In this document: one piece after another, positions 10,285 to 62,997 of the stretch
How the letters are laid out: each line of letters opens with the position of its first letter
How positions within the stretch are numbered: the stretch's first letter is position 1
DNA from: Chloroflexota bacterium
GTDB taxonomy: Bacteria > Chloroflexota > Limnocylindria > Limnocylindrales > CSP1-4
DNA length: 64,000 nucleotides
NCBI GenBank assembly: GCA_021802825.1
Contig: JAJZRG010000002.1
Location: 92,740 to 156,739, forward strand
Direction of reading: 5' to 3'
The notes under the pieces: model-generated
What the model was told of the DNA's origin: nothing
Seen by the model: the letters and a program-made list of their open reading frames with translations, nothing else
Database searches by the model: none
Made by a program: the position numbers and the translations under genes

Positions 10285-10288
<4 letters not shown>
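9668..10288 (-). CDS. ctaE: Cytochrome c oxidase subunit III
   Basis: Subunit III fold (GLWLFMASESMLFFAMAAARLYL...FFSMTGLHVFHLVTGLIGLL...WTFVDVMWLAIVFPMLYLL); His/Glu-rich N-terminal extension. Confidence 0.9.
10205..10252. repeat. Tandem duplication (24-bp period) inside the ctaE 5' end, encoding (L/S)(R/H)VAHHEE x2
   Basis: ctcctcgtggtgcgcgacgtggga / ctcctcgtggtgcgcgacgcggag read directly on the plus strand. Confidence 0.7.
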
Positions 10289-12210
<1,922 letters not shown>

Positions 12211-12212
12211 CG

Positions 12213-13827: not shown

Positions 13828-14262
13828 TCAGCCGGCCTGGGGTGCCGCAGGCGGCTCGTCGTGCGCCTCGCCAGGCGTCGGGGTGGAGTCGACGGGCACG
13901 GGCGCAGGGGCTGGGGGAGCCGGCTGTGCCTCGACAGGCGCGGGGGCCAGCGTGACAGGCGCGGCAGCGACGGGCGGCGGCGGGGGTTCTGTGGGCGCAG
14001 GAGCAGGAGGCGCGGCCTGCGGGGCGGGCACGGGCGCCGCCTGCTGCGGGGCAGGCGCGGGTGCGACCGGCGCGGCCTGTTGCGGGGCGGGCGCGGGACC
14101 GGCCGGCGGAGCGGGCGGCGTGTCGTCGCCCGAGGCGGCCTTCCGGAACTCGCGAATGCTCTTGCCAATCGCTCCCCCGACCTCGGGCAGCTTGCCCGGC
14201 CCGACGACGATCAGCGCGATCACCAGGATCAATGCGATGTGGAGCGGTGAGAACTCGCCCAT
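13828..14262 (-). CDS. tatA: Twin-arginine translocase subunit TatA/E with a long Pro/Ala-rich repetitive tail
   Basis: MGEFSPLHIALILVIALIVVGPGKLPEVGGAIGKSIREFRKA is a canonical TatA N-terminus (TM + amphipathic helix); the C-terminus is PAPAPQQAAPV-type low complexity with internal repeats. Confidence 0.85.
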   Translation of the reverse strand: MGEFSPLHIALILVIALIVVGPGKLPEVGGAIGKSIREFRKAASGDDTPPAPPAGPAPAPQQAAPVAPAPAPQQAAPVPAPQAAPPAPAPTEPPPPPVAAAPVTLAPAPVEAQPAPPAPAPVPVDSTPTPGEAHDEPPAAPQAG

Positions 14263-41758: not shown

Positions 41759-42193
41759 CCTCTGTCGGGCTCGCTGGCGCTGGGGACGAGCGCCGTCGCC
41801 GGCAGAGGCGGCGGGCCTTGACGTTCCGCGAACCTCGTGACCACCTCCGCCTTCGCTTGACCCCCTCGGGCATGTCTCAGGCGCGATGCGGGCCACGGTG
41901 GCAACAACATCGACCAGCGAGGTCTTGTCGGCCAAGGCGAATCCGAGCGCGTAATGGTCCTCGACGGAGATGTCGCCGTCCGTCTCGCGTCTTGCGATCT
42001 CGCCGGCACTGGCATCAGGTTCTCAACAACGAACCTCAGGCAAGTCGTTTGCGTAGTGTGGGCCGTGTGCGGCGACACCTCGAACCCGGTGTTTTCGTTC
42101 CCCGGTCAGGCACCCACTAGGTACGTCCGCAAGGGATCGTGACACCCGAGCTGCTTCGAAAACCCCTCCCGAGGACGACTGGGCGGAATGACC

Positions 42194-43420: not shown

Positions 43421-43681
43421 CGGACGCTCCTCCGCGGCCGCCGGCGGGCGCCCATCGTTCAGAAACTGCTTCGCGTGCTCGCCCCAGGGGAGCGGCAACA
43501 GACGGCGATGCCCGCAGGCGCCCGGGGCCAGGCTGTCACGCGGGCTCGAGGCACCAATCTTGGTGCGGCCTCGTCGACCGGCACGACCGCGGCCCCATTT
43601 TCATACGCGGCGGTGGCGCGCGTGCCATCAGAGCTGTCACCGCAGGCGTTATGGTTGGCCCGAAGTCCGGGTGCTAGCAAC

Positions 43682-46600: not shown

Positions 46601-47287
46601 ACGCGGCGCGAGGTCGACGCCCGCCTGACCTACGAGATCAACTATTGGGACGGACGGGCGTGGAAGCTCGAGCAGGAGGAGGCCGCCGGCAAGAGCGTCA
46701 AGCTCCCCAGCCTCCAGGCCCGCAGGCGCTCGGACGACCTGCGCGACCGACTGCGCTCGCGCAGCCGCGAGCTCGACCAGGAGGCGCAGGTGGACGCGCT
46801 GCCGCCCGTCGTCGTGGGCGGGGCAATCGTCGTGCCGCAGGGACTCCTCAACCGCCTGTCGGGCAGGCCTGCGCCCGAGGTCGACCTGTTCGCCCGAGAG
46901 ACCCGGCGCATCGAGCTGGCTGCCATGCAGACCGTGTTCGCCGCCGAGCGCGCCGCCGGCCGCGAGCCGCGCGACGTGTCCGCGGACAAGGTGGGCTGGG
47001 ACGTGGAGTCGCGCGAGCCGGGGGGTCGGCTCCGCTTCATCGAGGTCAAGGGCCGCGCCGCGGGCGCGACGACCGTCACGGTGACGCGTAACGAGATCGC
47101 CAAGTCATTCAACGTCCCGGACCGCTGGTACCTCGCCATCGTGACCGTGGACGGCGAGCACGCCGACCCGCCAGTCTACCTGCGCACGCCCTTCCGGCAG
47201 GCGCCGGAGCAGGCGGCGACATCGGTCAACTACGCCATCAAGGAGCTCCTCGAACAGGGGCACATCGTCGAGGTGGGAGGTGTGTAG
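43682..47287 (+). CDS. SNF2-family (superfamily 2) helicase with C-terminal DUF3883 restriction-endonuclease-like domain
   Basis: Motif I LADDPGAGKT, motif II DEAHK, helicase-C region (LATDAAGEGINLQRAHLMVNYDLPWNPNRLEQRFGRIHRIGQ), C-terminal DUF3883-like segment (RLRFIEVKGRAAGATTVTVTRNEIAKSFNVPDRWYLAIV). Start taken at ATG 43682; the longer tracked ORF is an antisense extension across the IS110 gene. Confidence 0.9.
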   Translation: MRGGPEGRTVKIARLEDLTNGALLAGVVPDAHVTVVNVAWHGSAVVTLTYRLADGAVAEKLLFREDEPKLVLVAEGRPWSFDGDGDAFRLASEAKRISLAYLFDPYVAVSTSLVEPLPHQITAVYRELLDRQPLSFLLADDPGAGKTIMTGLYIRELLVRGELRRCLIVAPGSLVEQWQQELADKFHLHFTLLSNELANGSPSGNVFADNDLLIARLDKLSRDEDLQLAIENAPDYDLIVFDEAHKLAATLFGDEVKETRRRKLAVRIRDHGRNLLLLTATPHNGKEADFELFMSLLDPDRFAGHKRKASETAPPASKTDGLMRRLIKEQLVKFDGTALFPPRFAYVVPYDLSDAEAVLYERVTAYVRDEMNRAERLKAEGEGRRGTIVGFALTVLQRRLASSPEAIYQSLRRRRERLERTVAETELLRQSAEVRLRIPELDQVSLTTIRELSEEGDDVDPDDATAAETEDTEETAVDLATAATTIAELRTEIGILRELEALAADVRRRGTDTKWTELSRLFQEAPEMVDAGGGRRKLVVFTEHRDTLNYLAERIGTFLGRPEAIVAIHGGLPRDQRRAAESRFKSDPDAIVLLATDAAGEGINLQRAHLMVNYDLPWNPNRLEQRFGRIHRIGQTEVCHLWNLVAHQTREGDVYARLLEKIQVESEALGGAVFDVLGQLTFEDGKSLRDLLIDAVRKGDSPEMRLWLTDVLDDALDQDNLRALLRQRALGANLLDAATVAGVRDQLERAEAARLQPHYVRGFFLEAFRGQGGTVREREPGRYELTKVPGRIRDRAREAGYRPAVLGAYERIAFEKDRVAVAGTPLAEYVCPGHPLLEATIDLVLHEHRDLLRRGALLVDPTDPGDELRALVYLEHSVIDARPNRNGGPSVVSRRLEFVEIGALDARGAGAAPYLDYRGATADERTKLTPAIAGQPWLVGSAVEGRALAHAIEHLSRAHLAEVRERTLDRVGRTRREVDARLTYEINYWDGRAWKLEQEEAAGKSVKLPSLQARRRSDDLRDRLRSRSRELDQEAQVDALPPVVVGGAIVVPQGLLNRLSGRPAPEVDLFARETRRIELAAMQTVFAAERAAGREPRDVSADKVGWDVESREPGGRLRFIEVKGRAAGATTVTVTRNEIAKSFNVPDRWYLAIVTVDGEHADPPVYLRTPFRQAPEQAATSVNYAIKELLEQGHIVEVGGV

Positions 47288-47338: not shown

Positions 47339-48565
47339 ATGAGCCGTGGCGGGCCTGTGGGAGCGGCAACGCGGCAGCGGGTAGCCGCCGCCATCGACGC
47401 CGCCATCACCGCGCATTCGAGCGCGCGGCCATCGGCCCGAGACATTCTCGATTCGGCGCTCGAGGAGTTGCCCGGCTCGTCCGGCGACACCCGCGGCCCG
47501 TGGGTGGGGCGGTCCGCGAGCTTCGATGCCATGCTCGAGGAGGCCCAGTCGCGGTGGCCCGAGGACTTCGAGGCCACGCTGCTCGAGTTCGTCGATGGGA
47601 TGATCTCCGAGCAGGCGGCTCTCGACCGGTTCGCCACTTGGTCGGACAGGCCCTGGGGGACAACCGGTCCGGAGTGGACCGACATTGGGGCAGACATCAC
47701 CGAGATCGGCGTCGAGTGGAGCGGCGGGTTGTCGCCCTTGGCTTCCAGCGACCTCGTGTTCCGGCCTGGCGGCGCGTCACGCACGGAGGTCTACCACGGG
47801 GGATCCCCGGAGACCGAGCACGCATCGTTCGATCTGAGCGCGTTCGAGGATCTGGCGCGGGCGGCCGCCGCGCTGTACGCCCCGCGGGAGCACCCGCGGG
47901 ATCGGGCATCGGAGACAGTGGTCTTTGACGCCGGGGAGACGTACGTCTGGCTCCACCGTGCGCGCAGGCGTGTCCCCTGGCAGGGCTCGGCACTCGGGCC
48001 GTCCCTCGTCAAGCTGTTGAGCGAAGCAGCAGATGGTCTCGACTGGAAGCCAGCGAGCGAGCTGCCATTGAGATGGGACACCGGGCGCCCGGTCACCGGA
48101 GTCGATGGCGGGACCGTTGATTGCCCGATGTGCCGCCAGGGCATCCTCACGGCCAGGTACGGCCGGTTCGGCGAGTTCGTGGGCTGCTCGCGGTACCCCG
48201 AATGCTCCTACGTCAAGAAGGATGGACCGCCGCCGCCCGACCAGCTTGCGTTCGAGGTCCGCTGTCCCAAGAACGACGACGGCCACCTCGTCGCGCGCCG
48301 TGTCCGGCGCACCGGGAACGTCTTCTGGGGGTGCTCTGCCTACCCCAAGTGCGACTTCACGACGAGCGGCGAGCCGACGGGCGCCATCCACGATGCCCAT
48401 GAGGGTGGGCTCGGTGCGGTTGCACGGCACGGCGGCGACGGGACTTGCATGACCTGTGGCGCGGCGGTCGAGCTGCCGTCGACGGTCAGTCCCGGCTTGC
48501 GGTTGCCGGGCGGGCCACCGGACCCGGCAGCACTCTCGCGTCTCCGTCGGTCGAAGAAGCGATGA
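47339..48565 (+). CDS. Protein with two topoisomerase-type C4 zinc-ribbon domains and an uncharacterised N-terminal domain
   Basis: CPMCRQGILTARYGRFGEFVGCSRYPEC and CPKNDDGHLVARRVRRTGNVFWGCSAYPKC fit the Topo I C-terminal zinc-ribbon repeat pattern (C-x2-C ... C-x4-C). Confidence 0.6.
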   Translation: MSRGGPVGAATRQRVAAAIDAAITAHSSARPSARDILDSALEELPGSSGDTRGPWVGRSASFDAMLEEAQSRWPEDFEATLLEFVDGMISEQAALDRFATWSDRPWGTTGPEWTDIGADITEIGVEWSGGLSPLASSDLVFRPGGASRTEVYHGGSPETEHASFDLSAFEDLARAAAALYAPREHPRDRASETVVFDAGETYVWLHRARRRVPWQGSALGPSLVKLLSEAADGLDWKPASELPLRWDTGRPVTGVDGGTVDCPMCRQGILTARYGRFGEFVGCSRYPECSYVKKDGPPPPDQLAFEVRCPKNDDGHLVARRVRRTGNVFWGCSAYPKCDFTTSGEPTGAIHDAHEGGLGAVARHGGDGTCMTCGAAVELPSTVSPGLRLPGGPPDPAALSRLRRSKKR

Positions 48566-48634: not shown

Positions 48635-51067
48635 ATGGAGCTTAGCGATCGGCTCGCGGGCGCGGTCTGGGGGCACCTGGTCGGCGACGCGGTGGGCGTC
48701 CCGTACGAGTTCAAGCCGGCGTCCTCGATCACGAGCGTCCACTTCGGCGTCGCGGGGACCCACTCCAAGCCGGCCGGGACGTGGAGCGACGACGGCGCGC
48801 TCATGCTCGCGCTGCTCGACTCGCTGCTGCGCGATCGGCAGGACGGCGAGTCGGTCTTCGACACCGCCGACGAGGCGCAACGCTTCCTGGCGTGGTGCGA
48901 CTCGGGCGCCTACACCCCGGGCGGAGAGGGCAGGTTCGACATCGGCGGGGCGACATCGAACGCCCTTGCGCGCCTGCGTAGCGGCACCCCGGCCGAGGAC
49001 GCTGGCGGCACCGGCGAGCGCGACAACGGCAACGGGTCGCTGATGCGGATCCTTCCCCTCGCGCTCGCCGACCGCGACGCGTCCAGCGAGGTCCTCGTCG
49101 AGCGCGCCTTCCGGGCCTCCGCGGTTACGCATGGGCACGTCGTCTCGCAGGTCGCGTGCGCCATGTATGTCCTGATCGCCCGCTACCTCCTGCTCGGCTG
49201 CTCGCGTCAGGCGGCGTTCGAGCGAGCCCACGGAGCGCTGTTCGGCATGTGGGCGCCGGGGGACGACGCCCGGCTCGCGGTCCTCGCGGAGCTGATGGCG
49301 TGGAAGGGCCGGTCGGGCCGCGGCTTCGTCGTCGACTCGTTCTGGTCGGCGTGGGACGCCCTCACGGGAGCCCACGACTACCGGGGGACGATCGAACGCG
49401 CGGTGCGTTACGGGAACGACACCGACACGACGGCCGCGATCGCTGGCGGACTGGCCGGCATCCGCTTCGGCCTGTCGGGCATCCCCGCGCACTGGCTGTC
49501 CGGCATGCGCGGTGCGGAGGTCGTCGCGCCGCTCGTCGCCAGGCTCACGGGGAGCCCCGCAGCGGCGGCCCTCGCAGGCTCGCCGTTCCGCACGGAGGCG
49601 GCGGTGCCGGGTGCGCGGACGTCGGAGAGCCACCCGCTGTACGTCAACTGGGTGGAGTCGTCTGCGGTTCCTGCGGCGGCCGGCTGGACGGGACGCCTCG
49701 GCATGAGCATCCTCGCCGGAAAGAAGGCCCAGGGGATCGCCGGGCTCCACTGGCGTGACGTCGAGACGGACATCACCAGGCTCGCAGAGCACGAGCACGT
49801 GGAAACCTACGTGCTGCTCGTCGAGGATCACGAGCTCGTCGAGACCAAGACGACGGGCATCCCCGATGCGTGCGCCAGGCACGGGATCGACCTGGTCCGG
49901 TTCCCGGTGGCGGACCACGGCGTGCCGGATCACACGGGCGCATACGCCGCCACGCTCGCGGCGGTCGAGGATCGCCTGCGTGCGGGCCGGACCGTGCTCG
50001 TCACGTGCAAGGGCGGCCTCGGGCGGACTGGCACGGCGGTCGCCTGCATGCTCCGCGACGCGGGCCTCGACGCCGAGGAGGCGATGGCGGTCACCCGCCG
50101 CGCCCGCCACGGGGCGATCGACCACGGCGCGCAGGAGGCGTTCGTCCGCTCCTGGGAGCCGGCAGCGCGTGGCACGTCGGCAAGCGGCCCCGGGGGCGCC
50201 GCCGAGCTGGCCGCCGGCGACGGTTTCACCTTTATCGACGGCGTCCTCTCGGCGTACAAGGCTGAGCTCGCTCGGCTCGCCCGAGGCGTTGTCGCCGGGG
50301 CCGCGCCGTCAGCCCGGGACGCCCGGGCAAGGGTGCTCGAGGCCCACGAGCAGGCCAAGGGCCTGTGGGCGAGGTACTCGCCCGAGGCGGCCGCGTACGG
50401 GCGGGTCGTCGAGGCGGGGCAGGGACGGGCCCGGTTCTTCAACGCGCTCGTCGATGCCGCGACGGCGCGGTGGGGCCAGCCGTCCGCGTCGTACTCGGAC
50501 GCCGTCGCCTGGCAGCGGGCTAGCGAGTGGGTCGACCCGGAGCAGGACACGCTCATCATCGACTGGGTCGTAGGCGAGCTGTCGCGCGAGGCCGAGACGA
50601 TCCTCCCGTTCGACCGCTACGAGGGCGGCGGCCGAAAGCCTCTCGGCAGGCCGCGCCAGGGCGACATGACCGCCCGCCACGGCTACGGGCCGCCCGTCTT
50701 CGAGCAGTGCGGCTACACGTGCGTCTACTGCGGGCTCGAGATGGGGGCATCGTTCGAGAACTGGCTCCAGCTCTCGGTCGACCATGTCATTCCGCGCCAG
50801 ATGAAGAACGCAGGGTTCGACCCGGCCCTAGTCGAGGACATCACGAATCTCGTGACCTGCTGCCGCGAGTGCAACGACTTCGGCAACCGATACACCGTGT
50901 CGGGCGAGGCCCCGGCGACCTACGCCGCCTTCTACGATGTTCGCGACCGCGTGTTCAGCGAGCGCAAGGCGATGATCCTCGCCAAGCGCGAACAGGAGCG
51001 CGCGATCTTCGCCAAGCTGCCGGCCGCCGGGCCGGACCGACCGGCCGTGGCCGGGGAGGACGCGTGA
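48635..51067 (+). CDS. Three-domain fusion: ADP-ribosylglycohydrolase + Cys-based (CX5R) protein/dual-specificity phosphatase-like domain + HNH nuclease
   Basis: ARH motifs GAVWGHLVGDAVGVPYEF ... GNDTDTTAAIAGGLAGI (aa 1-300); phosphatase P-loop VLVTCKGGLGRTGTAVACML (aa about 455-472); HNH motif CGYTCVYCG...LSVDHVIPRQ...NLVTCCRECN (aa about 692-748). Confidence 0.8.
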   Translation: MELSDRLAGAVWGHLVGDAVGVPYEFKPASSITSVHFGVAGTHSKPAGTWSDDGALMLALLDSLLRDRQDGESVFDTADEAQRFLAWCDSGAYTPGGEGRFDIGGATSNALARLRSGTPAEDAGGTGERDNGNGSLMRILPLALADRDASSEVLVERAFRASAVTHGHVVSQVACAMYVLIARYLLLGCSRQAAFERAHGALFGMWAPGDDARLAVLAELMAWKGRSGRGFVVDSFWSAWDALTGAHDYRGTIERAVRYGNDTDTTAAIAGGLAGIRFGLSGIPAHWLSGMRGAEVVAPLVARLTGSPAAAALAGSPFRTEAAVPGARTSESHPLYVNWVESSAVPAAAGWTGRLGMSILAGKKAQGIAGLHWRDVETDITRLAEHEHVETYVLLVEDHELVETKTTGIPDACARHGIDLVRFPVADHGVPDHTGAYAATLAAVEDRLRAGRTVLVTCKGGLGRTGTAVACMLRDAGLDAEEAMAVTRRARHGAIDHGAQEAFVRSWEPAARGTSASGPGGAAELAAGDGFTFIDGVLSAYKAELARLARGVVAGAAPSARDARARVLEAHEQAKGLWARYSPEAAAYGRVVEAGQGRARFFNALVDAATARWGQPSASYSDAVAWQRASEWVDPEQDTLIIDWVVGELSREAETILPFDRYEGGGRKPLGRPRQGDMTARHGYGPPVFEQCGYTCVYCGLEMGASFENWLQLSVDHVIPRQMKNAGFDPALVEDITNLVTCCRECNDFGNRYTVSGEAPATYAAFYDVRDRVFSERKAMILAKREQERAIFAKLPAAGPDRPAVAGEDA

Positions 51068-53892
51068 CCCAGGCCCAACCGCTCAAGCGCAAGCTCATCG
51101 AGGTCGCGCTCCCTCTCGAGGCGATCAACGTGGCCTCGGCACGTGAGAAAAGCATCCGTCGCGGGCACCCGTCCACACTTCACCTGTGGTGGTCGAGGAA
51201 GCCCCTCGCTACGTGCCGCGCAGTTCTGTTCGCAAGCCTCGTCGATGATCCGTCGTCGAACCCGGTCAGCTTTCCTACGCCCAAAGCTGTCGAAGTCGAG
51301 CGAACGCGACTCTTCGGAATCATCGAGCGCTTGGTCGAGTGGGAGAACAGCACGAACGAGGCGGTGCTCGAAGAGGCGCGCACCGAGATCATGCGCTCGA
51401 CCGGCGGCAACCCGCCGTCCGTCCTGGACCCATTTTGCGGCGGCGGTTCGATTCCGCTTGAGGCGCAGCGACTTGGCCTGACGGCGTACGCCAGTGACCT
51501 CAACCCGGTTGCGGTTCTGATAACCAAGGCTCTGATTGAGATCCCGCCGACGTTCGCGAGACTCACGCCTGTCCACCCTGACGCGCGCCGCGGCATGGGC
51601 GGCAGCGGAGCCTGGAATGGCGCCACTGGCTTAGCGGAGGACGTCAGGCGATACGCCGCATGGATGCGGGGCGAAGCCGAGCGTCGGATTGGGCACCTCT
51701 ATCCGCCGACGACGCTCCCGAGGGAACTTGGGGGTGGTGAGGCCACGATCATTGCATCAATCTGGGCGCGCACTGTCACGTGCCCGAATCCAGCCTGTGG
51801 CGCCCAGATGCCCCTGACGACGAAGTTTGCGTTGTCCACGAAGAAGGGCAAGGCAGCCTGGGTCGAGCCGGTCATCGATAGGGTTCGGCGAACGGTCCGA
51901 TTCGAGGTTCGCACTGGGACCATGCCGGCCTCGGCGCTGACCGGGACGGCCACTGTGGGAACCGAAGGCAAGAAGGTCCGATCCTCATTCACCTGCCTTG
52001 TGTGCAGCTCAGGCATGGCAGACGGCGCGTACATCGACGGACAAGCTGACGCTGGAGCCATGGGTGCGGTGCCAATGGCGATGGTGGCTGACGGGCCCCG
52101 GGCTCGAGTGTTCCTCGCGCCCGACGATGACCTGAGAAACGCAGTCGCGGCGGCAGTCGAACTCGTGGAGAACCCAGCGGTCGCCGCGAAGCTGCCGGTC
52201 GAGCCTACGCGCGGGACGTTTGCGAGTAATGCGCAGGGACGCTATTACGGGCTCCGACGGTTCCGGGACTACTTCTCGCCGCGACAACTCCTGACACTCG
52301 CGACACTCGTCGATCTCGTAGGCGAGGTGCGCTTTCGCATCCGGGGTGACGCCACAGAAGCCGGTGACCGCGACGCGGTCGACTACGCCAACGCCATCGC
52401 CATGTACTTGGCGCTCGCTATTGATCGGAGCGCGAACACCCTTTGCACCCTAGCCCGGTGGACGCCAGCTCGTGAGCAGACGGTGACGGCCTTTTCTCGC
52501 CAGGCGATTCAGATGGCCTGGGACTACCCGGAGGTCAACCCATTCTCGGAGGCGGCCGGAGGGTACGGCGTCTCCGTTGATGGGATCGTCGAGGCGCTGA
52601 AGAACTTGCCGGCAACTCGGTCCGGTTATGCGACCCAAGCGGACGCCATGCGGCTGCCGTCTGGCCCGAGCGCCTATCTCGTATCAACCGACCCGCCGTA
52701 CTACGACAACATCGGCTACTCGGACTTGTCGGACTTCTTCTACGTCTGGCTTCGGCGCTGCCTGTCCGATGTTGATCCCGATCTGTTCGGCACGGTATTG
52801 ACCCCGAAGTCGGCGGAGCTCATCGCATCGCCTTACCGTTTTGCAGGCAGCAAGGTCAAGGCTGACGAGCACTTCGAGGCTGGACTTGGCGCAGCGTTCG
52901 CCCGAATGCTCGAGCGCGCGGATCCGACGGTCCCGGTAACGATCTACTACGCGTTCAAGCAGTCCGAGTCTGACGAAGATGACGGTGGAGCCGTTGCGTC
53001 GACTGGATGGGAGACGATGCTGGAGGCGCTCTTGTCCGCCGGGTTTGCCATTGACGGTACTTGGCCAATCCGTAGTGAACTCAGCAACCGTATGGTGGCA
53101 AGCGGCACCAACGCCCTGGCGTCCTCGATCGTTCTCGTATGTCGCGGTCGTTCCACTGACGCTGGTATCGCCACCCGCCGTGACTTCGTGGCAAGCCTGA
53201 AGCGGGAGATGCCGCGAGCCTTGCGAGACCTTCAGCACGGCAACATCGCGCCGGTCGACCTCGCTCAGTCGGCCATCGGACCCGGCATGGCCGTGTTCAG
53301 CCAGTACTCCAATGTCCTCGAGCCCGACGGCACGGCAATGCGCGTGCGCACGGCGCTCTCGCTCATCAATCAGGTCCTCGACGAGATCTTGGCCGAGCAG
53401 GAGGGCGAGTTCGACACGGACACGCGCTGGGCCGTTGCCTGGTACGACCAATACGGGATGAAGGACGCGGAGTTCGGCGTCGCCGATGTCCTCGCTCGTG
53501 CAAAGAACACGTCGGTCCAGGGCATGGTCGAGGCCGGCATCGTATCGGCTGGCCGCGGAAAGGTTCGCTTGCTCGCACGCGACGAGTACGACCAGGGCTG
53601 GGACCCGGCGCACGATCGGCGGCTCCCGGCCTGGGAGGCCGCGCAGCGGCTGGTGCACGTCCTGCTGACCTCAGGCGAAGGCCCGGCCGGGGAGCTGCTG
53701 GCGAAGTTGGGTGGCGTCGGCGAGGCCGCCCGCGACCTCGCGTACCGCCTTTACCAGGTGTCCGAGCGCAAGGGCTGGGCCGACGAGGCACGGGCGTACA
53801 ACGCACTCGTCGTGGCGTGGTCGGACCTGTCGCGCGGCGCCGCGGCGCCTGCCGCGTCCGAGTCGACACAGCCGAGCCTCGGGCTCGAGTAG
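51064..53892 (+). CDS. DUF1156-family N6-adenine/N4-cytosine DNA methyltransferase
   Basis: GTG start overlaps the upstream stop (GTGA); N-terminal DUF1156 signature KRKLIEVALPLEAINVASAREKSIRRGHPSTLHLWWSRKPLATCRAVLFASLVDDP; SAM motif I DPFCGGGSIPLEAQRLG; catalytic motif IV STDPPYYDNIGYSDLSDFF. Confidence 0.9.
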   Translation: MTQAQPLKRKLIEVALPLEAINVASAREKSIRRGHPSTLHLWWSRKPLATCRAVLFASLVDDPSSNPVSFPTPKAVEVERTRLFGIIERLVEWENSTNEAVLEEARTEIMRSTGGNPPSVLDPFCGGGSIPLEAQRLGLTAYASDLNPVAVLITKALIEIPPTFARLTPVHPDARRGMGGSGAWNGATGLAEDVRRYAAWMRGEAERRIGHLYPPTTLPRELGGGEATIIASIWARTVTCPNPACGAQMPLTTKFALSTKKGKAAWVEPVIDRVRRTVRFEVRTGTMPASALTGTATVGTEGKKVRSSFTCLVCSSGMADGAYIDGQADAGAMGAVPMAMVADGPRARVFLAPDDDLRNAVAAAVELVENPAVAAKLPVEPTRGTFASNAQGRYYGLRRFRDYFSPRQLLTLATLVDLVGEVRFRIRGDATEAGDRDAVDYANAIAMYLALAIDRSANTLCTLARWTPAREQTVTAFSRQAIQMAWDYPEVNPFSEAAGGYGVSVDGIVEALKNLPATRSGYATQADAMRLPSGPSAYLVSTDPPYYDNIGYSDLSDFFYVWLRRCLSDVDPDLFGTVLTPKSAELIASPYRFAGSKVKADEHFEAGLGAAFARMLERADPTVPVTIYYAFKQSESDEDDGGAVASTGWETMLEALLSAGFAIDGTWPIRSELSNRMVASGTNALASSIVLVCRGRSTDAGIATRRDFVASLKREMPRALRDLQHGNIAPVDLAQSAIGPGMAVFSQYSNVLEPDGTAMRVRTALSLINQVLDEILAEQEGEFDTDTRWAVAWYDQYGMKDAEFGVADVLARAKNTSVQGMVEAGIVSAGRGKVRLLARDEYDQGWDPAHDRRLPAWEAAQRLVHVLLTSGEGPAGELLAKLGGVGEAARDLAYRLYQVSERKGWADEARAYNALVVAWSDLSRGAAAPAASESTQPSLGLE

Positions 53893-53904: not shown

Positions 53905-56900
53905 GTGGCACTGTCGAACCGCGAGCGCATCGGCCGCATGCTCGATGGGCTCGCCGGCGGGCTCAAGCCGGTCGTGGACAGGATGTTCACCGAGGCGTAC
54001 GGGACGGCGTGGGTGTCGCGCGTCGACGCGGACCGCCCGGCCAACGCCGGGCCGGCGGACCCGAACGACGCCCAGTTCCTGCTCAATGCCGCGTGGTTCC
54101 ACTGGAACGAGACGCTCGGCAGGACGCTCGGGCCGGCCGAGAAGAACTACGTGAACGAGCTCCGCCTGACGCGCAACCGCTGGGCGCACCCGGGCGAGCG
54201 GCCGTTCACCGGCGAGGACGTGTACCGCGCGTACGACACCGCCGAGCGGCTGCTGCGGTCGGTCGCGTCGCCGGCTGCCGACGACGTCGGCAAGGCGAAG
54301 TCGCAGGTCCTGATGGAGAACGCCGTCGCCCAGGCCAAGGACCGCCAGAAGGCGCCGGCCGTCGCCGCCACCGCGGGCGAGCCCGCCAAGGGCCTCGCGC
54401 CCTGGCGCTCCGTCGTCACGCCGCACCCCGATGTCGCCGCAGGGCGGTACCGCCAGGCCGAGTTCGCCGCCGACCTCGCGCAGGTCGCCCGCGGCGAGGG
54501 GGCGAAGGAGTACGTGGATCCGCGCGAGTTCTTCGCGCGGACGTACCTCACAGAGGGGCTGAGGCTCCTGCTCACCGGCGCGCTGCGCCGTCTGGCCGGG
54601 ACCGGCGGCGAGTCTGTCGTGGACCTCCAGACCACGTTCGGCGGCGGCAAGACGCACTCCATGCTCGCGCTCTGGCACCTCGCCGCGGCCGGTGCGTCGA
54701 TCACGTCCCTGCCGGGCCTCGAAGGTGTCGTAGCGGACGCGGGCGTCGCCTCGCTTCCGCGTGTCGCGCGGGCCGCGATCGTCGGCACGTCGCTCTCGCC
54801 GATCACGCCGCGCGTCGTCGAGGGAGCCGAGATCAGGACCCTCTGGGGCGAGCTGGCGTGGCAGCTCGGCGGCCCCGAGGGCTTCGCGCGCGTGGCGGAG
54901 GCCGACCGGGCCGGCGTCCCGCCCGGCGCGGACGCGCTGCGCGGACTGCTGGCCGCCTACGCCCCGGTCGTCGTGCTGGTGGACGAGTGGGTGACGTACG
55001 CCCGGCTCCAGTGGGGCAAGGACGCGCTCCCCGGCGGGTCCTTCGACGCTGCGCTCTCCTTCGCCCAGCAGCTCACCGGCGCCGTGGACCAGGTCCCGGG
55101 CGCCCTGCTCGTCGTGTCGCTCCCGTCGTCGGTGATCGAGGTCGGCGGCGAGGGCGGCCAGAAGGCGCTGGCAGCGCTCAAGCACGTCGTCCACCGCGTC
55201 GACGCGCCGTGGCGCCCGGCCGCGGCGCAGGAGAGCTTCGAGATCGTCCGGCGTCGCCTCTTCGAGCCGATCACCGCGGAGGCGGCGAGGTCGCGCGATG
55301 AGGTCGTGCAGCAATTCTCCGAGCTCTACTCGGCGAACACGGGCATGTTCCCTTCGGACACGAAGGAGAAGTCGTACCTCGAGCGGCTCCGAAACTGCTA
55401 TCCGATCCACCCCGAGCTGTTCGACCGGCTCTTCGACGACTGGTCGACCCTCGAGCGGTTCCAGCGGACGCGCGGCGTCCTCAAGCTGATGGCCGCGGTC
55501 GTCCACACGCTCTGGGAGAAGCAGGACGGCAACCTCCTGATCCTGCCGGGGGCGATCCCGCTGGACGACGGCGAGGTGATGCCGCAGCTCATCCAGTACC
55601 TCGACGACGGCTGGGACGCCATCGTCGAGGGCGATGTCGACGGCACCTCATCGCTGCCGCTCCGGCTCGACCGCGAGAACCACGGGACCTACGGGCGCTA
55701 CTCGGCAGCCCGCCGCGTGGCGCGCACGGTGTTCCTCGGCTCGGCGCCGCTGCCTGCGGCCGCCAACCGCGGCATCGACGACAAGCGGATCCTGCTCGGC
55801 GCGGTCCAGCCCGGAGAGACGCCGGCCACGTTCGGCGACGCCCTCCGGAAGCTCGCCGGCCAGGCGACCTACCTGTACGAGAACGCCGGCCGCTACTGGT
55901 ACTCGACCCAGCCGTCGGTCAACCAGCTCGCGCGCGACCGCGCCGACCAGCAGGCGCAAGACCAGGTCGAGCTCGAGATCGAGGCGCGCCTAAAGAAGGC
56001 GCTCGCGGACCGGCTGCCGTTCCACCGGATCCACGCCGCGCCGCGCGACGCGTCGGACGTGCCCGACGAGGACGAGGTCGCGCTCGTCGCGCTCCGCCCC
56101 GAGCACCCGCACGACGCGAAGGGGCTCGGTTCCAAGGCCCGCGACGCGGCGGCGGCCATCCTGGCGTCGCGGGGCGCGGGCACGCGCGTCAACAAGAACA
56201 TGCTCGTGTTCCTCGCGCCCGACTCCCTCCGCCTGCCGGAGCTCGAGGACGCCGTCCGCCAGTTCAAGGCCTGGTCGTCGATCCTGGCCGACGGGGACGC
56301 CGGCCGACTCAACCTCGACGACTTCGGGCGCGCCCAGGCCAAGTCTCAGCGCGACAGCTTCGACGCGACCGCCACGTCGCGCGTGCCCGAGACGTACCAC
56401 TGGCTGCTCGTCCCCGAGCAGGCGGACGCGCTCTCCCCGGTCGAGCTCAAGGCCGTCAAGATCGCGCCGGGCCCCGACATCGCCGCCCGCGCCGCGGCGA
56501 AGCTCCGCTCCGAGGAGCTGCTGATCACCCGGTACGGCGGCGTCAACCTGCGGCTCGTCCTCACCCAGACGCTGAAGGACTACTGGGGCCAGCACCACGA
56601 AGTGGGCATGCGCGAGCTGTGGGGCTGGTTCGCCCATTACCCGTACCTGCCGCGCCTCCTCGACATGAGCGTCCTCGAGGGCGCGGTCGAGGACGGCGTC
56701 GGGAACCTCCTGTGGCGCTCGGAGACGTTCGCCTACGCGGCGGCTCGTGAAGCTGGCGGGGCGTACATGGGCGTCGTCGCCGGGCGCCGGGCGCCGACGC
56801 CGGTGACCTCGACGAGCCTGATCGTGGACGGCTCGCTCATTCGGGACGCGCCCGCGCGATCGCCCGTGCCGCCCGTGGATGACATGCCGGAGGGCGGACA

Positions 56901-57174
56901 CAAGTCCCCGGAGCCGCCCAAGCCCGCGAGCATCCGCAGGTTCCACGGCCAGGCCGTCCTGTCGGACCCGCGGACGCCGATCCCCGAGCTCCAGAAGCTC
57001 GTCGCCGAGATCATCGGCCCACTTGCCGCCCAGACCGAGGTGAGCCTCACCATCCGCGTGGAGATCGAGGCCGACCACCGCGCCGAGGCCGGTTTCACCG
57101 ACCAGACCATCCGCACCGTGTCCGAGAATGCGCGAACCCTGCGCCTCCGCGACTTCGGCTTCGAGCGGGAGTAG
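53905..57174 (+). CDS. DUF499 (BrxC/PglY-like) P-loop ATPase with N-terminal Swt1-type HEPN domain
   Basis: GTG start after GGGGGAG; HEPN R-x4-H motif LTRNRWAH in the first 110 aa; Walker A TTFGGGKTHSMLAL, Walker B VVVLVDEWVTY; large C-terminal region typical of DUF499 proteins. Confidence 0.9.
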   Translation: MALSNRERIGRMLDGLAGGLKPVVDRMFTEAYGTAWVSRVDADRPANAGPADPNDAQFLLNAAWFHWNETLGRTLGPAEKNYVNELRLTRNRWAHPGERPFTGEDVYRAYDTAERLLRSVASPAADDVGKAKSQVLMENAVAQAKDRQKAPAVAATAGEPAKGLAPWRSVVTPHPDVAAGRYRQAEFAADLAQVARGEGAKEYVDPREFFARTYLTEGLRLLLTGALRRLAGTGGESVVDLQTTFGGGKTHSMLALWHLAAAGASITSLPGLEGVVADAGVASLPRVARAAIVGTSLSPITPRVVEGAEIRTLWGELAWQLGGPEGFARVAEADRAGVPPGADALRGLLAAYAPVVVLVDEWVTYARLQWGKDALPGGSFDAALSFAQQLTGAVDQVPGALLVVSLPSSVIEVGGEGGQKALAALKHVVHRVDAPWRPAAAQESFEIVRRRLFEPITAEAARSRDEVVQQFSELYSANTGMFPSDTKEKSYLERLRNCYPIHPELFDRLFDDWSTLERFQRTRGVLKLMAAVVHTLWEKQDGNLLILPGAIPLDDGEVMPQLIQYLDDGWDAIVEGDVDGTSSLPLRLDRENHGTYGRYSAARRVARTVFLGSAPLPAAANRGIDDKRILLGAVQPGETPATFGDALRKLAGQATYLYENAGRYWYSTQPSVNQLARDRADQQAQDQVELEIEARLKKALADRLPFHRIHAAPRDASDVPDEDEVALVALRPEHPHDAKGLGSKARDAAAAILASRGAGTRVNKNMLVFLAPDSLRLPELEDAVRQFKAWSSILADGDAGRLNLDDFGRAQAKSQRDSFDATATSRVPETYHWLLVPEQADALSPVELKAVKIAPGPDIAARAAAKLRSEELLITRYGGVNLRLVLTQTLKDYWGQHHEVGMRELWGWFAHYPYLPRLLDMSVLEGAVEDGVGNLLWRSETFAYAAAREAGGAYMGVVAGRRAPTPVTSTSLIVDGSLIRDAPARSPVPPVDDMPEGGHKSPEPPKPASIRRFHGQAVLSDPRTPIPELQKLVAEIIGPLAAQTEVSLTIRVEIEADHRAEAGFTDQTIRTVSENARTLRLRDFGFERE

Positions 57175-57177
57175 GGG

Positions 57178-58047
57178 GTGGCCTCAAGACGCGCCCCTGG
57201 GAAGGGCGAACAAAGGCAGGGCCCTCCCATCCTGACCATCGCCCTGGTAGAAGCACAGCGTCTGATTGCCGACCAGCTCGAGCGCGGCAGGCAGATCCGG
57301 GAGCGGCAGATCGGCGATCGCTCGAGTCTTGCGGCAGCGAAGGACGCCTACAACAACTGGGTCGACTACAACCGGGACCTGCTGCGTCGGATCCTGACCA
57401 CGGATGAGCCATCGGACGAGTTCGCGCGGTCGATTCACCTGATGTACGTGCTCGGAGACACGACGCTCGGGGAGGACATCGAGGAGTTCCGATCGGACAT
57501 CGGGACCCACCTCCGACGTCTCGAGTCGATCTCGGACCGACTCCCGCTCTTCGACAACCGGCCGGAGCTCGCCAGCGCCGCCGCACCAGGCACGGAGATC
57601 GACATGAAGCGGGTCTTCGTTGTGCACGGTCACAACCTCGCGGTGCTGGATCGAGTTGTGCGATTGCTGCGCGATCTCGATCTGGAGCCAGTCGTGCTCC
57701 GAGAGCAGGCAAATCAAGGCAGAACCATCATCGAGAAGTTCGAGGCGCACACGGATGTAGCGTTCGCCGTGGTCATCCTGACCGCGGACGACATCGGCGG
57801 AGTCGTCGGCACGGCCCCTGAGGAGTTGCGCCTTCGAGCACGCCAGAACGTCGTGCTGGAGCTCGGGTTCTTCATTGGAAAGCTGGGCAGGCGCTCTGTC
57901 GTGTCGCTACTCGAGCGCCGAGTCGAGGTTCCGAGCGACATCGACGGCGTCCTCTACATCCCGATGGACACCGGTGACTCGTGGCGCCTGCTCCTCGCCA
58001 AGGAGATGAAGGCGGCCGGTCTGCCAGTCGACCTCAATCGACTTTGA
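57178..58047 (+). CDS. TIR-like domain protein (COG4271 / PF10137-type predicted nucleotide-binding TIR-like) with alpha-helical N-terminal domain
   Basis: C-terminal KRVFVVHGHNLAVLDRVVRLLRDLDLEPVVLREQANQGRTIIEKFEAHTDVAFAVVILTADDIGG...RARQNVVLELGFFIGKLGRRSVV matches the TIR-like pattern recalled from CBASS/Pycsar effectors (vFIVHGhD...IIEKFE...faVVLLTpDD...NVifElGfF). GTG start 4 nt after the ATPase stop. Confidence 0.6.
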   Translation: MASRRAPGKGEQRQGPPILTIALVEAQRLIADQLERGRQIRERQIGDRSSLAAAKDAYNNWVDYNRDLLRRILTTDEPSDEFARSIHLMYVLGDTTLGEDIEEFRSDIGTHLRRLESISDRLPLFDNRPELASAAAPGTEIDMKRVFVVHGHNLAVLDRVVRLLRDLDLEPVVLREQANQGRTIIEKFEAHTDVAFAVVILTADDIGGVVGTAPEELRLRARQNVVLELGFFIGKLGRRSVVSLLERRVEVPSDIDGVLYIPMDTGDSWRLLLAKEMKAAGLPVDLNRL

Positions 58048-58111: not shown

Positions 58112-60003
58112 ATGACAGCGCTCGAACGGCAGACCGTTGACGTCGATGAACTGCATGGGCGCATCTCGGCGCTGCCGTTCCCGATTGCGTCCGTCCTTGA
58201 GCTCTATCTGACGGACACGGACAACAGGGATCGCATCGAGGACTTGCTGCACGCCTTCGAGGCCACCGCGGAGTTCGCGGCAAGCGTTCTACTCGCGGGG
58301 CTCCTCCGGGATCCCGAGGGGCTCTCAAGCCACTGGGACTCGATCCGGGGCCCCGGACGCGGCGTCGGTCATGCACTCCGCACGAGCTCCTTCGGCACCT
58401 GGGTGATGCTCGGCACGACGCTTACCGTCGTGGTGAATCGCGAGATCAACCGCGGCAGGGCAACCGACGTTGCAACGGGATTCGGTCTCGCCACGATCGC
58501 TCCACTGGAGGCGCTTGCGACTCGGAGCGCCTGGGAGATTCTCGACAAGGCCAAGGTCATCAGAAACGGCGCAAAGGGGCATGATCCGCGACTCACCCCG
58601 GCGGATCGCGTGAGAATCCTTCTGTCGCTCGAGGCGCTGCTGCTGGAGCTCCTGCCGGCCCTGGAGCGCGCATTCTCCTCTTGGGAGCTGGTTCGGCTTG
58701 GTGGCGCAACGACCCGGCACGGAGTCCTTGCATTCGATGCCCGCAGGCTGACTGGAGCACCGCGAGCGTTCCGTCCTACCCGGATCGAAGTCACTCAGGT
58801 GCTCGAGACCGGTGGCGTCTACATGTACGACGCGCGCGCGAGCGCACCACTCCCTCTCGGCCCGTTCATCCAGCTCGTTCAGGACGACGCCCGGGGCACC
58901 GAGGCCTGCTACTTCTACGACCGCATCGAGAACGAGGAGACGCGCTGGAAGCTGTACCACACCGGCGCCGATTCATCCCTGTCATTCCCGATGCCGGCCC
59001 TGCTGGAGCTTCTCTCGTTCCTCGATGCCGGGCCAGACCGCTCTCTCCCGATTGATCAGCAAGAAGCCGCCGCGAGGTCCGCACGGCTGCGGATCCCGGT
59101 GCGGAAGTGGATCGAGGCTCCGGGTCGGATGCGACTCCCGAGCTGGACATCGGCCGCGAGAGCGCGGTCGAACCGGACGCAGCGGAGCCTCCGGCGGCGG
59201 CGGCCGCAGGCCGAGGCCCCGTGGGCGCCCTCGTCGGCACCGCATTGGCGACAGCGATGTACCCGATCGTCAGGCGCGAGGATCCCACGAGACGGGGCCG
59301 ATCGGTCGACGCATGGCTCGTGGTGGCCGAGCAGGCCGGAATCGTCATCCCCGGCGACAGGGCGCAGAAGCTCAGGTCTGCCTTCAACATCACGCAGCAC
59401 CTCTTCGCGCGCCCCGGGCGCGGGACTTGGACATGGGTCGGCCACGACGCGGCCCTGGTCGCGGACGGCCTGTCAGGCTCGGAGCTGCGAGACAAGGCCT
59501 ACGACGCCGCGCGGGAGCTCGATCCAAGTCGCGGCGGCATCCACTACGAGACGATCAAGGCCGAGCTGCTCCGGCGAGGCGTCGCGATCGCCGGACCGTC
59601 GCAAGGCCGCCGGGTTTGGGCGGCGCTCGGATCGGCTTCGGGCGCTGCCCGATTCCGCGCGCTCGGCGAGGGCCGGTTCGCCTGGGTGACCGACGGCGAC
59701 AACACGGGCACCATCGCCGCCGAGAGCCGAGAGCCGCTGCGACTCCCGCCGGGCCTGCGTGGCTTCGCGGACCTCGCGGGGGCGCTCGACACGCTCCTCC
59801 TGGCCGTGCACCCGTCGATAGGGCGGAATGTTCGCGAAGACGAGGTCGTCTACCTGTCCGCAGCCGAGCCCATTGCCCGGCTCGAGGTTCACCGATCCAG
59901 GCTGCGGATCGTCGTGGACGAGCCCCTCGCCACTACGCCTCACGTCGCGGGCGTTGTCGTCCAGCAGCTTGCACTCCCGGGGCAGCCGAGCCACACGACT
60001 GAG
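58112..60003 (+). pseudogene. 5' portion of a large (about 830 aa) gene of unknown function, frameshifted near 59110-59130 and truncated by an IS insertion
   Basis: Frame-2 ORF from 58112 is protein-like up to about aa 340 and then turns into R/S/P-rich out-of-frame sequence. The frame-1 ORF from 59107 is protein-like with high GC3 and ends in a TAG that lies inside the IS left inverted repeat. Confidence 0.55.
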
Positions 60004-61084
60004 GGCCTGTAGCCGAATTCTCCCGCACGAATGTCCCCGCTCGTGCCAGCAAAGGTGTCACAGCCTGGCCTGAGCATGCCGGGCAAGGGCACGATCGTCG
60101 ACCTCGCCGACGCCGAGTGGGAGCAGGTCGCCGACCTGTTCGACCCTGAGGGCCGGCGCGGTGCACCCGAGGTCTACCCGCGCCGGACCATGGTTGAGGC
60201 GATGCTGTGGATGGCCCGGACCGGTGTCCAGTGGCGCTATCTGCCCGAGCGGTTCCCGCCCTGGACCGCCGTCTGGAGCCAGTGGCGGCGCTGGCGGGCC
60301 AACGGGGTCTGGGCAGCGTCCATCGGCCGGCTCGCCCGCACGATCCGCGTGGACAAGGACCGCCACCCCGAGCCCTCGATGGTGATGGTCGACGCCCAGA
60401 CGGCCAAGGGTGGCCGGGCGGGCCCCACGTTCTGGGAATGCGTACGGTGAGCGGGCCTTCCGCAGGGCGGCCGGACGTTCGGCGCCAAGCGCTCGATCCT
60501 GGTCGACATCCTGGGCCTGCCGTTCGCCTGCCGGGTCGATCCGGCCCGGCCCCATGACGTCGCCTCGGCCCGCCTGCTCCTCGCCGAGGAGCTCCCCGCG
60601 CTCCCACGCCTGCGCGCCGTCGTCGCCGACCGCGCCTACCGCGGCCTCGCGAAGCTCGCCGCACGGCGTGATCTTGTCCTCGACATCAAGGCGCCGCCGG
60701 CGGGGGCGAGCGGCTTCGTCCCCATCAGGCCGCTGGTCAAGGTCGAGCACGCCTTCGCGCAGCTCGGACGCTGGCGACGCCTGTCGCGCTGCGACGAGCA
60801 GACCGAGGCGTCGGCCCGGGCCTGGCTCGAGGTCGCGGCCATGGGCTACCTGTTCGCGAGGATGCGGATCGAGCCCGCCTGACACGTTGCCCGCAGCCAG
60901 CCAGCCAGTCGCCTGGCCTCATCCGGCGCGGCCCGTCGGCTCCCGATGACCGACTCTCCGCGGGCGGTCGTGGCACCGGGTGCTGCGTGACCCGCCGTCC
61001 GATCCCTTGCCTTCTCTCCGCCGCGATCGTTCGCGTGTCCGACCCGATCAGGTCGTGCCAGAACGGCGAATTCGGCTACAGGCC
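60004..61084 (+). mobile_element. IS5-family insertion sequence (IS427/DUF4096 group-like), 1081 bp
   Basis: 17-bp perfect terminal inverted repeats GGCCTGTAGCCGAATTC (60004-60020) / GAATTCGGCTACAGGCC (61068-61084), flanked by a 5-bp direct repeat CTGAG (59999-60003 and 61085-61089). Confidence 0.75.
60031..60882 (+). pseudogene. IS5-family transposase (DUF4096 N-terminal + DDE domain), interrupted by an in-frame TGA at 60448-60450
   Basis: N-terminal WRYLPERFPPWTAVWSQWRRWRANGVW (DUF4096). After the TGA, the same frame continues RSILVDILGLPFACRVDPARPHDVASARLLL...VVADRAYRG...PLVKVEHAFAQLGRWRRLSRCDEQTEASARAWLEVAAMGYLFARM (DDE domain, ends 60882). Likely true start is MPGKGTIVDLADAEW at 60076. 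Confidence 0.75.
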
Positions 61085-61692: not shown

Positions 61693-62092
61693 GTTCGACG
61701 CCTTGCTGCAACCTCCAGGCGCTGAGGGCGCGCTCAGTTCGTCGACGCGTTCGGGACGTAGCGGTGCGGCCCCGAACCCGACGTGGACCTTGCCCGTGAC
61801 ACCCTTGGTGTCGTGGTGGAAGTAGATGCGCGGGATGTTCGGCCCGCCGCCCTCGGACTGAGAATGATCATGCCCACGGAGGGTAGCGTCGGCCTCCCGA
61901 CAGGCGGCGGAGGCGAAGTAGAGTCGAGGCGCACAGCGATCGACAGCAGCGGGAACGCATCGATGCCCACCTGCGACGACGACGAGCTCGGCGGCGATTT
62001 CCACACGTCCCGACGGTAGCTCCTTAGTCAGAGTGCTCGAAGCGTACACACTCTGCCTTGACACGCGTCCATACTCGGCGCAGAGTCCCGGC

Positions 62093-62398
62093 ATGCAGAA
62101 CGTGATTGGCATCCGGACTCTTCGGCGGGGCGTCAACGGGGCGCTCCTGCGCGTGGCGCGCGGCGAGACGATCGTCCTCGTGCGGCACGGGCGGCCGGTC
62201 GCGATCCTCCGGCCCCTCGGCGTGGGCGAGCTGTACCGGCGGGTGTCGGTCACGACCTTCCGGCGGAACCTGCGGCGGGCCGTGCTGGTGTCGCACCGCC
62301 GCCCGATTACGCTGACCTGGTACGGCGACGGGGCCGCGGTCCTGGCGCCCGTCCCGCCCGAGCTCGAGCTCGAGTACGAAGAGGACGACCTCCTGTGA
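62093..62398 (+). CDS. Phd/YefM-like antitoxin-domain protein with two tandem antitoxin-like domains
   Basis: MQNVIGIRTLRRGVNGALLRVARGETIVLVRHGRPVAILRPLG and VSVTTFRRNLRRAVLVSHRRPITLTWYGDGAAVLAPV both resemble the Phd/YefM N-terminal fold. Confidence 0.55.
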   Translation: MQNVIGIRTLRRGVNGALLRVARGETIVLVRHGRPVAILRPLGVGELYRRVSVTTFRRNLRRAVLVSHRRPITLTWYGDGAAVLAPVPPELELEYEEDDLL

Positions 62399-62997
62399 CC
62401 GCCGGCGGGATGATCCAGGCGCTCGGGATGCGCGAGGTCCGCGAGAGGATGCGCGCGGTCGTGGCGCGGGTCGAGGCGGGCGAGGCCCTCGTGGTGCTCC
62501 GCGACGGGCAGCCGGCCGCGGTCATGCTCGGCTTCGCCGAGGGGCAGCGCTGGCAGCAGGTCGAGCGGTCGCTGTCCTCGCTCCACGGCCTCGAGCTGTA
62601 CCCGGAGCTGGCGCGCGACACCGCCGAGCTGGCGCGGCTCGTGCGCCGCGAGGCCCGGCCCTCGGCCACCGCGATCCGCCGCCTGGCCGAGCAGCCTCGC
62701 GACATCCTGGCGCCGCTGCGGACGATGGGGATCACCGACGCTCGGGCCGGGTTCGCGGCGCTGCTCGACGAGGTCGGGCGGGGGCGGACGATGACGATCG
62801 TGTCGAGCGGCAGGTTCGCCGCCACGCTCGTCGCGCCGCGCGAGTTCGACCGCCTCCGCGCGCTCGACCGCACGGTGGGCTGGTTCCGGTCCGCGGGGCT
62901 CGACCTCGCGGCCGCGGACGACGCCGCGATCGCCGCCTTCGTGCGCGAGTTCGCGACCCGGTCGGCGGCGGCCGGCGCCGAGCAGGCGGCGGGGTAG
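62395..62997 (+). CDS. Second protein with two tandem Phd/YefM-like antitoxin domains
   Basis: GTG overlaps the upstream stop; LGMREVRERMRAVVARVEAGEALVVLRDGQPAAVMLGFAE and MGITDARAGFAALLDEVGRGRTMTIVSSGRFAATLVAPREFDRL. Confidence 0.5.
   Translation: MTAGGMIQALGMREVRERMRAVVARVEAGEALVVLRDGQPAAVMLGFAEGQRWQQVERSLSSLHGLELYPELARDTAELARLVRREARPSATAIRRLAEQPRDILAPLRTMGITDARAGFAALLDEVGRGRTMTIVSSGRFAATLVAPREFDRLRALDRTVGWFRSAGLDLAAADDAAIAAFVREFATRSAAAGAEQAAG

Follow-up and report, generated by a model that had tools for sequence, protein, structure and literature searches.

The Hma operon and its appended gene

The window analysed here, a stretch of 64,000 nucleotides of the Chloroflexota contig JAJZRG010000002.1, encodes a TIR-like protein directly downstream of the last gene of a predicted defence operon. 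The following features were identified in this region.

42188..47287, + strand: HmaA, an SNF2 helicase with a C-terminal NOV_C nuclease-type domain (PADLOC HmaA, E = 0; Pfam)
47339..48565, between HmaA and HmaB: Zn-ribbon protein of 408 aa with two topoisomerase-type Zn ribbons
48635..51067, between HmaA and HmaB: fusion protein of 810 aa comprising an ADP-ribosylglycohydrolase (ARH), a DSP-type phosphatase ("PTP-SAK") and an HNH domain
51064..53892, + strand: HmaB, a DUF1156 N6-adenine methyltransferase (PADLOC HmaB, E = 0; Pfam DUF1156)
53905..57174, + strand: HmaC, a HEPN_Swt1 and DUF499 ATPase protein directly upstream of the TIR gene (PADLOC HmaC, E = 4e-294; Pfam)
57167-57171, + strand: GGGAG, a Shine-Dalgarno-like motif within the last HmaC codons, 6 nt ahead of the GTG
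57172-57174, + strand: HmaC stop codon TAG (read from the sequence)
57178-57180, + strand: GTG start codon of the TIR gene (read from the sequence)
57178..58047, + strand: TIR-like protein gene of the PADLOC PDC-S35 type, an ORF with GTG start and TGA stop encoding 289 aa (PF10137)
60031..60885: IS4/IS5-family transposase N-terminal domain (DUF4096), about 2 kb downstream of the TIR gene
62033..62997: ORF of 200 aa with two Phd/YefM antitoxin-like stretches, following a small overlapping ORF

The HmaA helicase, HmaB methylase and HmaC ATPase genes lie on one strand, and all three were recognized by PADLOC with E-values of 0 to 4e-294. Judged by these matches, the window holds a complete, DUF499-centred Hma system. 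The Hma system was described previously (PMC8565338) and has recently been renamed the Type-1 BREX-related system (PMC12839542). In HmaA, the PADLOC match covers residues 511-1692, and the Pfam domains SNF2-rel_dom, Helicase_C and NOV_C were found; a 510-aa N-terminal extension without a Pfam match lies ahead of the PADLOC-matched region. The GTG start of HmaB at position 51064 overlaps the preceding stop by 4 nt. HmaC, which the preliminary description had called an ATPase from the sequence, combines HEPN_Swt1 with DUF499, and its N-terminal Swt1-like HEPN RNase domain occupies residues 11-120.

The Zn-ribbon gene and the ARH-PTP-HNH gene (47339..48565 and 48635..51067) have no PADLOC system match, just weak PtuB-like HNH matches, and adjoin no other homologue of the TIR gene in the fetched loci. 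Both appear to be uncharacterised candidate defence genes embedded in Hma. The TIR gene does not count among the defined components of Hma, and the term TIR is absent from the text of the survey of BREX-related systems (PMC12839542). In terms of annotation, the locus is an Hma system within which two genes are embedded and to which one candidate defence gene is appended.

Directly past the TIR gene, a search of 5.8 billion proteins with the first 329 aa (58112..59100) returned no homologue at E ≤ 0.001, so this ORF does not represent a conserved partner. Neither the frame that begins at 58112 nor 59107..60012, which is in another frame, has a Pfam, PADLOC or NCBIfam match. The segment 58112..60012 may contain an orphan or frameshifted gene, or else be non-coding. 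Its G+C content is about 65%, versus about 72% in the flanks.

The 289-aa TIR protein has an identical copy (P0001) in the public protein collection. Its GTG start is supported by its homologues, since the best of more than 5000 scored are about 285–290 aa long with 94–100% query coverage, M1 is nearly invariant, and nearly all homologues begin in the same column of a 32-sequence alignment. Three bases (GGG) separate the HmaC stop from the GTG, which places the start at the fourth base past the stop, in agreement with the 4 nt given in the preliminary description. Neither a sigma-70-like promoter nor a + strand terminator-like site was found around the HmaC/TIR junction; the sole terminator-like match nearby is on the - strand inside the TIR gene (57373-57360). 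A junction equivalent to that of the window, AAGGAG-TAG/TAA-(3–6 nt)-ATG, was seen in four other loci (L004, L252, L253 and L254), and at the Hma-linked junctions the Shine-Dalgarno motif is supplied by the final HmaC codons GAG-AAG-GAG-stop. The genes encoding P0006, P0008, P0012 and the window protein all start 3–6 nt past HmaC. Co-transcription with HmaC, which had been proposed as probable, is plausible because of the 3-nt gap, the Shine-Dalgarno motif in the HmaC end, the lack of a promoter or + strand terminator at the junction, and the conservation of the junction in three other lineages. As far as these features indicate, the TIR gene is coupled in translation to the Hma operon at its 3' end and forms a stable fourth gene in this lineage.

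The G+C content at third codon positions (GC3) of the TIR gene is 0.71–0.79, versus 0.87–0.97 in the coupled host gene (window, L004, L087, L002 and L250). This low GC3 points to a mobile cassette or, alternatively, to selection that keeps the translation of a toxic protein weak. The HmaB gene of the window likewise has a low GC3 of 0.78.

Domain architecture of the TIR protein

The 289-aa protein was divided into the following parts.

57229..57552, + strand: N-terminal helical domain, about residues 18-125, a predicted sensor/adaptor (AlphaFold2 model, domain profile)
57553..57609, + strand: low-confidence variable linker of about 18 residues, about residues 126-144 (pLDDT, alignment)
57610..58044, + strand: TIR domain of the CAP12/Pycsar clade, residues 145-289 (PF10137, Foldseek, profile matches)
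57859..57861, + strand: codon GAG, the predicted catalytic glutamate E228 (aligned with E84 of SfSTING)
57937-57939, + strand: codon of D254 (aligned with D110 of SfSTING)

The only Pfam match of the protein is CAP12-PCTIR_TIR (PF10137; STIR clan), which scores 119.1 bits against a cut-off of 24.7 (E = 1.4e-34). It spans residues 145-264 and profile positions 1-118 of 119, and a match of this quality is far beyond chance. The preliminary description had recognized a TIR-like domain from the motifs VFVVHGHN, IIEKFE, FAVVILTADD and NVVLELGFFIGKLG, all of which are present in the ORF translation and alignment, and the profile search that it proposed as a check thus returned the expected family over residues 145-264. 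In a Foldseek search against the PDB, the best matches are the TIR-STING Cap12 filaments 9LMQ and 7UN8 (E about 1e-4), followed by SARM1, TIR-APAZ and other TIRs. When solved structures were searched with a family profile, Cap12 was retrieved at 8.9e-11 and 2.5e-7 and PycTIR at 8e-6. The CBASS TIR-effector and PycTIR models of PADLOC match weakly, at 1e-10 to 5e-12 (PycTIR, E = 1.4e-10).

The active-site helix motif R222-Q-N224-V-V-L-E228-L-G230 overlies the segment of SfSTING with R78, N80 and E84, and P252-S-D254 overlies the loop carrying D110. In SfSTING, E84 is catalytic and the D110 loop enters the active site of the dimer mate (PMC9402430). R222, N224, E228 and D254 are kept in 119–120 of the 120 closest cluster representatives, and E228, the glutamate whose absence would have spoken against the preliminary assignment, is present in 119 of these 120. 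From the conserved residues only, we infer NADase activity and toxicity; the TIR domain is predicted to destroy NAD+.

Cap12 TIR-STING (SfSTING, 7UN8; 9LMQ) is the closest structural and sequence relative of the TIR domain, and the R-x-N-x-x-x-E-x-G helix and the aspartate of the P-S/T-D loop are common to both proteins. In contrast to Cap12, the window protein has no STING/SAVED domain, its predicted sensor being an unrelated helical bundle, and it scores 39 bits against a cut-off of 450 with the NCBIfam Cap12 equivalog. No CD-NTase or other nucleotidyltransferase match was obtained among the scanned neighbours (HmaA, HmaB, HmaC, the Zn-ribbon and ARH-PTP-HNH proteins, the orphan ORFs and the IS element). 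Membership in CBASS as a Cap12 was rejected because the STING/SAVED domain and a nearby CD-NTase gene are both missing. The TIR domain of Pycsar PycTIR (PDB 8JSJ) belongs to the same Pfam family, but its similarity to the window protein does not extend beyond the TIR part. No cyclic-nucleotide-binding N-terminal domain was detected in the window protein by Pfam or fold search, and membership in Pycsar was rejected because Pfam and PADLOC scans of the neighbours revealed no pyrimidine cyclase (PycC). The likeness to Cap12 and PycTIR noted earlier therefore holds for the TIR domain and does not extend to membership in either system. Assignment to Thoeris ThsB was also rejected, given that PF10137 is the only Pfam family, and no Thoeris PADLOC match, ThsA-type gene or conserved neighbour was found.

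The PADLOC model PDLC05005 (PDC-S35) matches residues 50-289 over profile positions 21-262 with E = 3.1e-68, which was counted as full-length, and four more PDC-S35 models match the TIR half. PDC-S35 is a single-gene "phage defence candidate" of PADLOC derived by guilt-by-embedding (Payne et al., bioRxiv 10.1101/2024.01.29.577857), and these candidates are explicitly untested. By these matches, the TIR protein is assigned to the widespread candidate anti-phage family PDC-S35. Phage defence candidates generally lie inside or beside Hma, type I restriction-modification (R-M) and related systems, as the window gene does; unlike a gene embedded between hma genes, however, the window gene is appended past the last of them. 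The name PDC-S35 is absent from searchable papers. A functional study of the PDC-S35, PF10137, COG4271 or WP_000235578 family was not found in the searchable literature.

The full-length protein was modelled by AlphaFold2 with the family alignment (mean pLDDT 85.6, pTM 0.54), and at this pTM the arrangement of the two domains in the model is uncertain. The N-terminal half, described earlier as helical, comprises four helices in the model (H23-41, H48-72, H77-83 and H97-125) with pLDDT mostly above 90, and the beta/alpha TIR fold begins at residue 145. The pLDDT of residues 131-138 in the intervening linker falls below 50, and in the 32-sequence alignment the linker varies in length and is not conserved in sequence. 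When modelled alone, the N-terminal domain reached a pLDDT of 87.1 and a pTM of 0.78. It has no Pfam match below 0.01 (best E = 0.011) and no fold relative in the PDB by Foldseek (best E = 1.2).

A profile of the N-terminal domain retrieved 2467 representatives at E ≤ 0.001, most of which combine this domain with PF10137 in proteins of about 288 aa. In other proteins it is fused to transmembrane helices (the second unit of P0124, and P0224), to divergent TIR-like domains with an NPNVFxELG motif (P0125, P0135 and P0164), to an unknown C-terminal domain (P0154) or to TIR and a SieB-like segment (P0220). The N-terminal domain also diverges faster than the TIR domain (58% versus 70–73% identity). 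Because of these alternative C-termini and this faster divergence, it is read as a putative module that would behave as expected of a sensor or adaptor joined to exchangeable effectors.

A protein of the same size and architecture is SpbK, a single-protein TIR abortive-infection system of the Bacillus subtilis element ICEBs1, in which a 4-helix N-terminal domain is joined by an 18-residue linker to a TIR NADase, and which is clustered and activated by the phage portal (PMC12847820). In both proteins a helical bundle of about 95–125 residues is followed by roughly 18 residues of flexible linker and then by the TIR domain at the C-terminus. The TIR of SpbK, however, belongs to a different subfamily, and the likeness is one of architecture only. 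SpbK is absent from the PDB profile matches (E ≤ 1) and from the top 50 Foldseek matches. SpbK is nevertheless the best model for how the window protein may work.

Homologues and their genomic neighbourhoods

The homologue census scored more than 5000 cluster representatives. Members of the family were found on Tn7-like elements, plasmids, prophages and satellites, with 1147 plasmid records and 167 matches on IMG/VR contigs. At 80 genome loci from many bacterial phyla and archaea, whose proteins share 34–62% amino acid identity with the window protein, no Hma gene was found within 10 kb. Partner genes were searched by tblastn at up to 257 loci with Hma, HsdR/M/S, AbiEii, ARH-PTP-HNH and downstream-ORF queries, and 43 upstream and 30 downstream same-strand neighbours were scanned with Pfam. 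Neither approach revealed a universal partner gene across the loci, just recurrent R-M contexts. The neighbours are heterogeneous, including methylases, HTH proteins, MNT/HepT pairs, AbiU2 and housekeeping genes, and are enriched for defence and toxin-antitoxin genes.

The survey of partners bears on a reading in which the TIR protein resembles Thoeris ThsB and produces an ADPR-derived messenger for a separate effector, such as the ARH-PTP-HNH protein encoded at 48635..51067. TIR domains can be signal synthases, and the same operon does encode an ADP-ribose-handling domain fused to an HNH nuclease. Such a role is nevertheless very improbable, considering that the TIR domain belongs to the PF10137 effector clade and not to the Pfam family of ThsB, that the ARH-PTP-HNH gene is absent from every other locus with a homologue, and that the family has no conserved partner gene.

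Among the closest relatives (≥55% identity), the genes of the window protein, P0006, P0008 and P0012 lie directly after HmaC in four lineages, and these proteins share about 60% mutual identity. In a sister clade, the genes of P0002, P0003, P0005 and P0010 lie directly after or overlap a type I hsdR gene. Upstream of the P0011 gene (L089, 9630..9812), hsdR is reduced to its last ~60 codons, which share 70% identity with HsdR of L087; this remnant records the earlier attachment of the TIR gene to a type I system that is now gone. P0009 adjoins NERD and SIR2 genes, and P0014 is cargo of a Tn7-like element. Neighbour-joining places the Hma-linked proteins at the base of the tree as a paraphyletic group and the HsdR-linked proteins in a nested position.

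Type III systems are also involved. Among more distant relatives, at three loci from three unrelated phyla (L049, L063 and L080, at about positions 7000–14000 in each), the TIR gene and an MNT/HepT pair are located between type III Mod and Res, and the TIR-like gene overlaps Mod by 4 nt. At another locus (L071), a TIR, MNT and HepT trio precedes a gene for a 1489-aa Mrr-helicase-methylase fusion. Across the family, the gene is without a fixed neighbour, yet repeatedly docked onto ATP-dependent restriction operons. The family was already known from Pfam and the PDC-S35 catalogue, and the Hma context and the embedding phenomenon have been published. New here are the conserved Hma-TIR junction, the switch of the sister clade to type I hsdR along with the type III settings, the finding that the unannotated N-terminal domain is modular, and a tractable homologue from E. 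coli.

Mobility and low GC3 raise the question of a non-defence role, in which the gene would be a selfish addiction or toxin-like passenger, or decaying cargo, at the 3' ends of mobile R-M operons. Its GC3 is below that of the host operon, its relatives travel on the mobile carriers listed above, and the window has an IS element 2 kb beyond the gene. Against this stand an intact ORF whose catalytic and structural residues are strictly conserved in more than 5000 homologues, an orientation shared with Hma and a tight coupling to it in four lineages, and an enrichment of the neighbourhood in defence and toxin-antitoxin genes. We consider a passenger of this kind quite improbable.

Predicted mode of action and relation to restriction systems

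The repeated docking could indicate that the TIR protein depends on a restriction complex and is not autonomous. As a guard or back-up effector, comparable to PrrC for EcoprrI, the TIR protein would monitor or be held by the restriction complex and fire NAD+ depletion once an anti-restriction protein disables that complex. This reading draws on the position directly after HmaC in four lineages of about 60% identity with a conserved coupled junction, on the sister clade, where the gene follows or overlaps type I hsdR and one locus keeps just an hsdR 3' remnant, and on the relatives between type III Mod and Res in three phyla. PrrC-type embedding in type I R-M systems and embedded systems acting as back-up are documented, and back-up effectors have been proposed for DUF499 systems. 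Most family members, however, have no R-M neighbour. The N-terminal domain bears no partner-specific signature or divergence: Hma-linked proteins are no more alike in this domain among themselves (58% identity) than they are to HsdR-linked proteins (58%). The C-termini of HmaC and HsdR share no similarity that could provide a common docking segment (BLASTP E = 0.81), and in every host operon the TIR gene keeps its own lower GC3, as a mobile cassette would.

PrrC and RloC resemble the window protein in being abortive-infection effectors genetically attached to an ATP-dependent restriction system, but they are anticodon nucleases, which act on tRNA, and the window protein is a predicted NADase. 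PrrC is, moreover, almost exclusively embedded in R-M systems, whereas most PDC-S35-type members stand alone. On balance, a guard or back-up role is unlikely: the recurrent docking makes it attractive, but it leaves the many stand-alone members without an explanation. In a narrower version, a little less likely again, the TIR protein would be a dedicated guard, bound to or licensed by the Hma, type I or type III complex; it would then be an NADase counterpart of PrrC-EcoprrI that serves three types of restriction system.

The TIR protein is better explained, with rather more than even confidence, as an autonomous, mobile single-protein abortive-infection NADase that is co-expressed with Hma. 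Autonomy is favoured because no neighbour is conserved across the family and the PDC-S35 match is to a single-gene model; the 80 Hma-free loci, the heterogeneous neighbours, the NERD/SIR2 and Tn7 settings, the IMG/VR matches and the E. coli satellite described below were counted in the same sense. Docking onto restriction operons is exactly the pattern from which the phage defence candidates of PADLOC were derived. The preliminary description had left open whether the gene is an additional effector of the operon or a separate single-gene defence; the latter is favoured, as a separate gene riding on the operon.

For an autonomous protein, we infer that it acts as an NADase, that oligomerisation activates it, that a phage provides the trigger and that the outcome is defence. 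The helical N-terminal domain would serve as sensor or adaptor, tethered by the flexible linker to the CAP12/Pycsar-clade TIR NADase. By analogy with solved relatives, the TIR domains may be inactive until brought together, and activation of SfSTING depends on oligomerisation (PMC9402430). A composite active site would then be formed by E228, R222 and N224 of one protomer and D254 of its partner. A phage-derived cue or scaffold may cluster the N-terminal domains and so switch on NAD+ hydrolysis; single-protein TIR systems of E. coli are triggered by structural proteins. Depletion of NAD+ would halt replication of the phage and sacrifice the infected cell. Coupling to the Hma operon would let the TIR protein be expressed as a second layer of defence.

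If active, the protein would represent a very widespread one-gene NAD+-depleting module, found in bacterial phyla, some archaea, plasmids, prophages and satellites. Defining the trigger of the uncharacterised N-terminal domain would add a new phage-sensing domain to the TIR toolbox, and the conserved coupling, to Hma here and to type I and type III systems in relatives, makes it possible to ask in a specific instance whether such appended genes form independent layers or guard the restriction complex.

In E. coli, a gene of this family is present in 37 of 5426 complete genomes. The homologue WP_000235578.1 (L257, 9021..9896 of NZ_AP022222.1) is homologous over its full length to the window protein, with 34% amino acid identity, and is a convenient, tractable E. 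coli test case. Its gene sits just past the integrase and HTH regulator of a capsid-encoding, phage-satellite-like island, which is itself inserted in a prophage major capsid gene.
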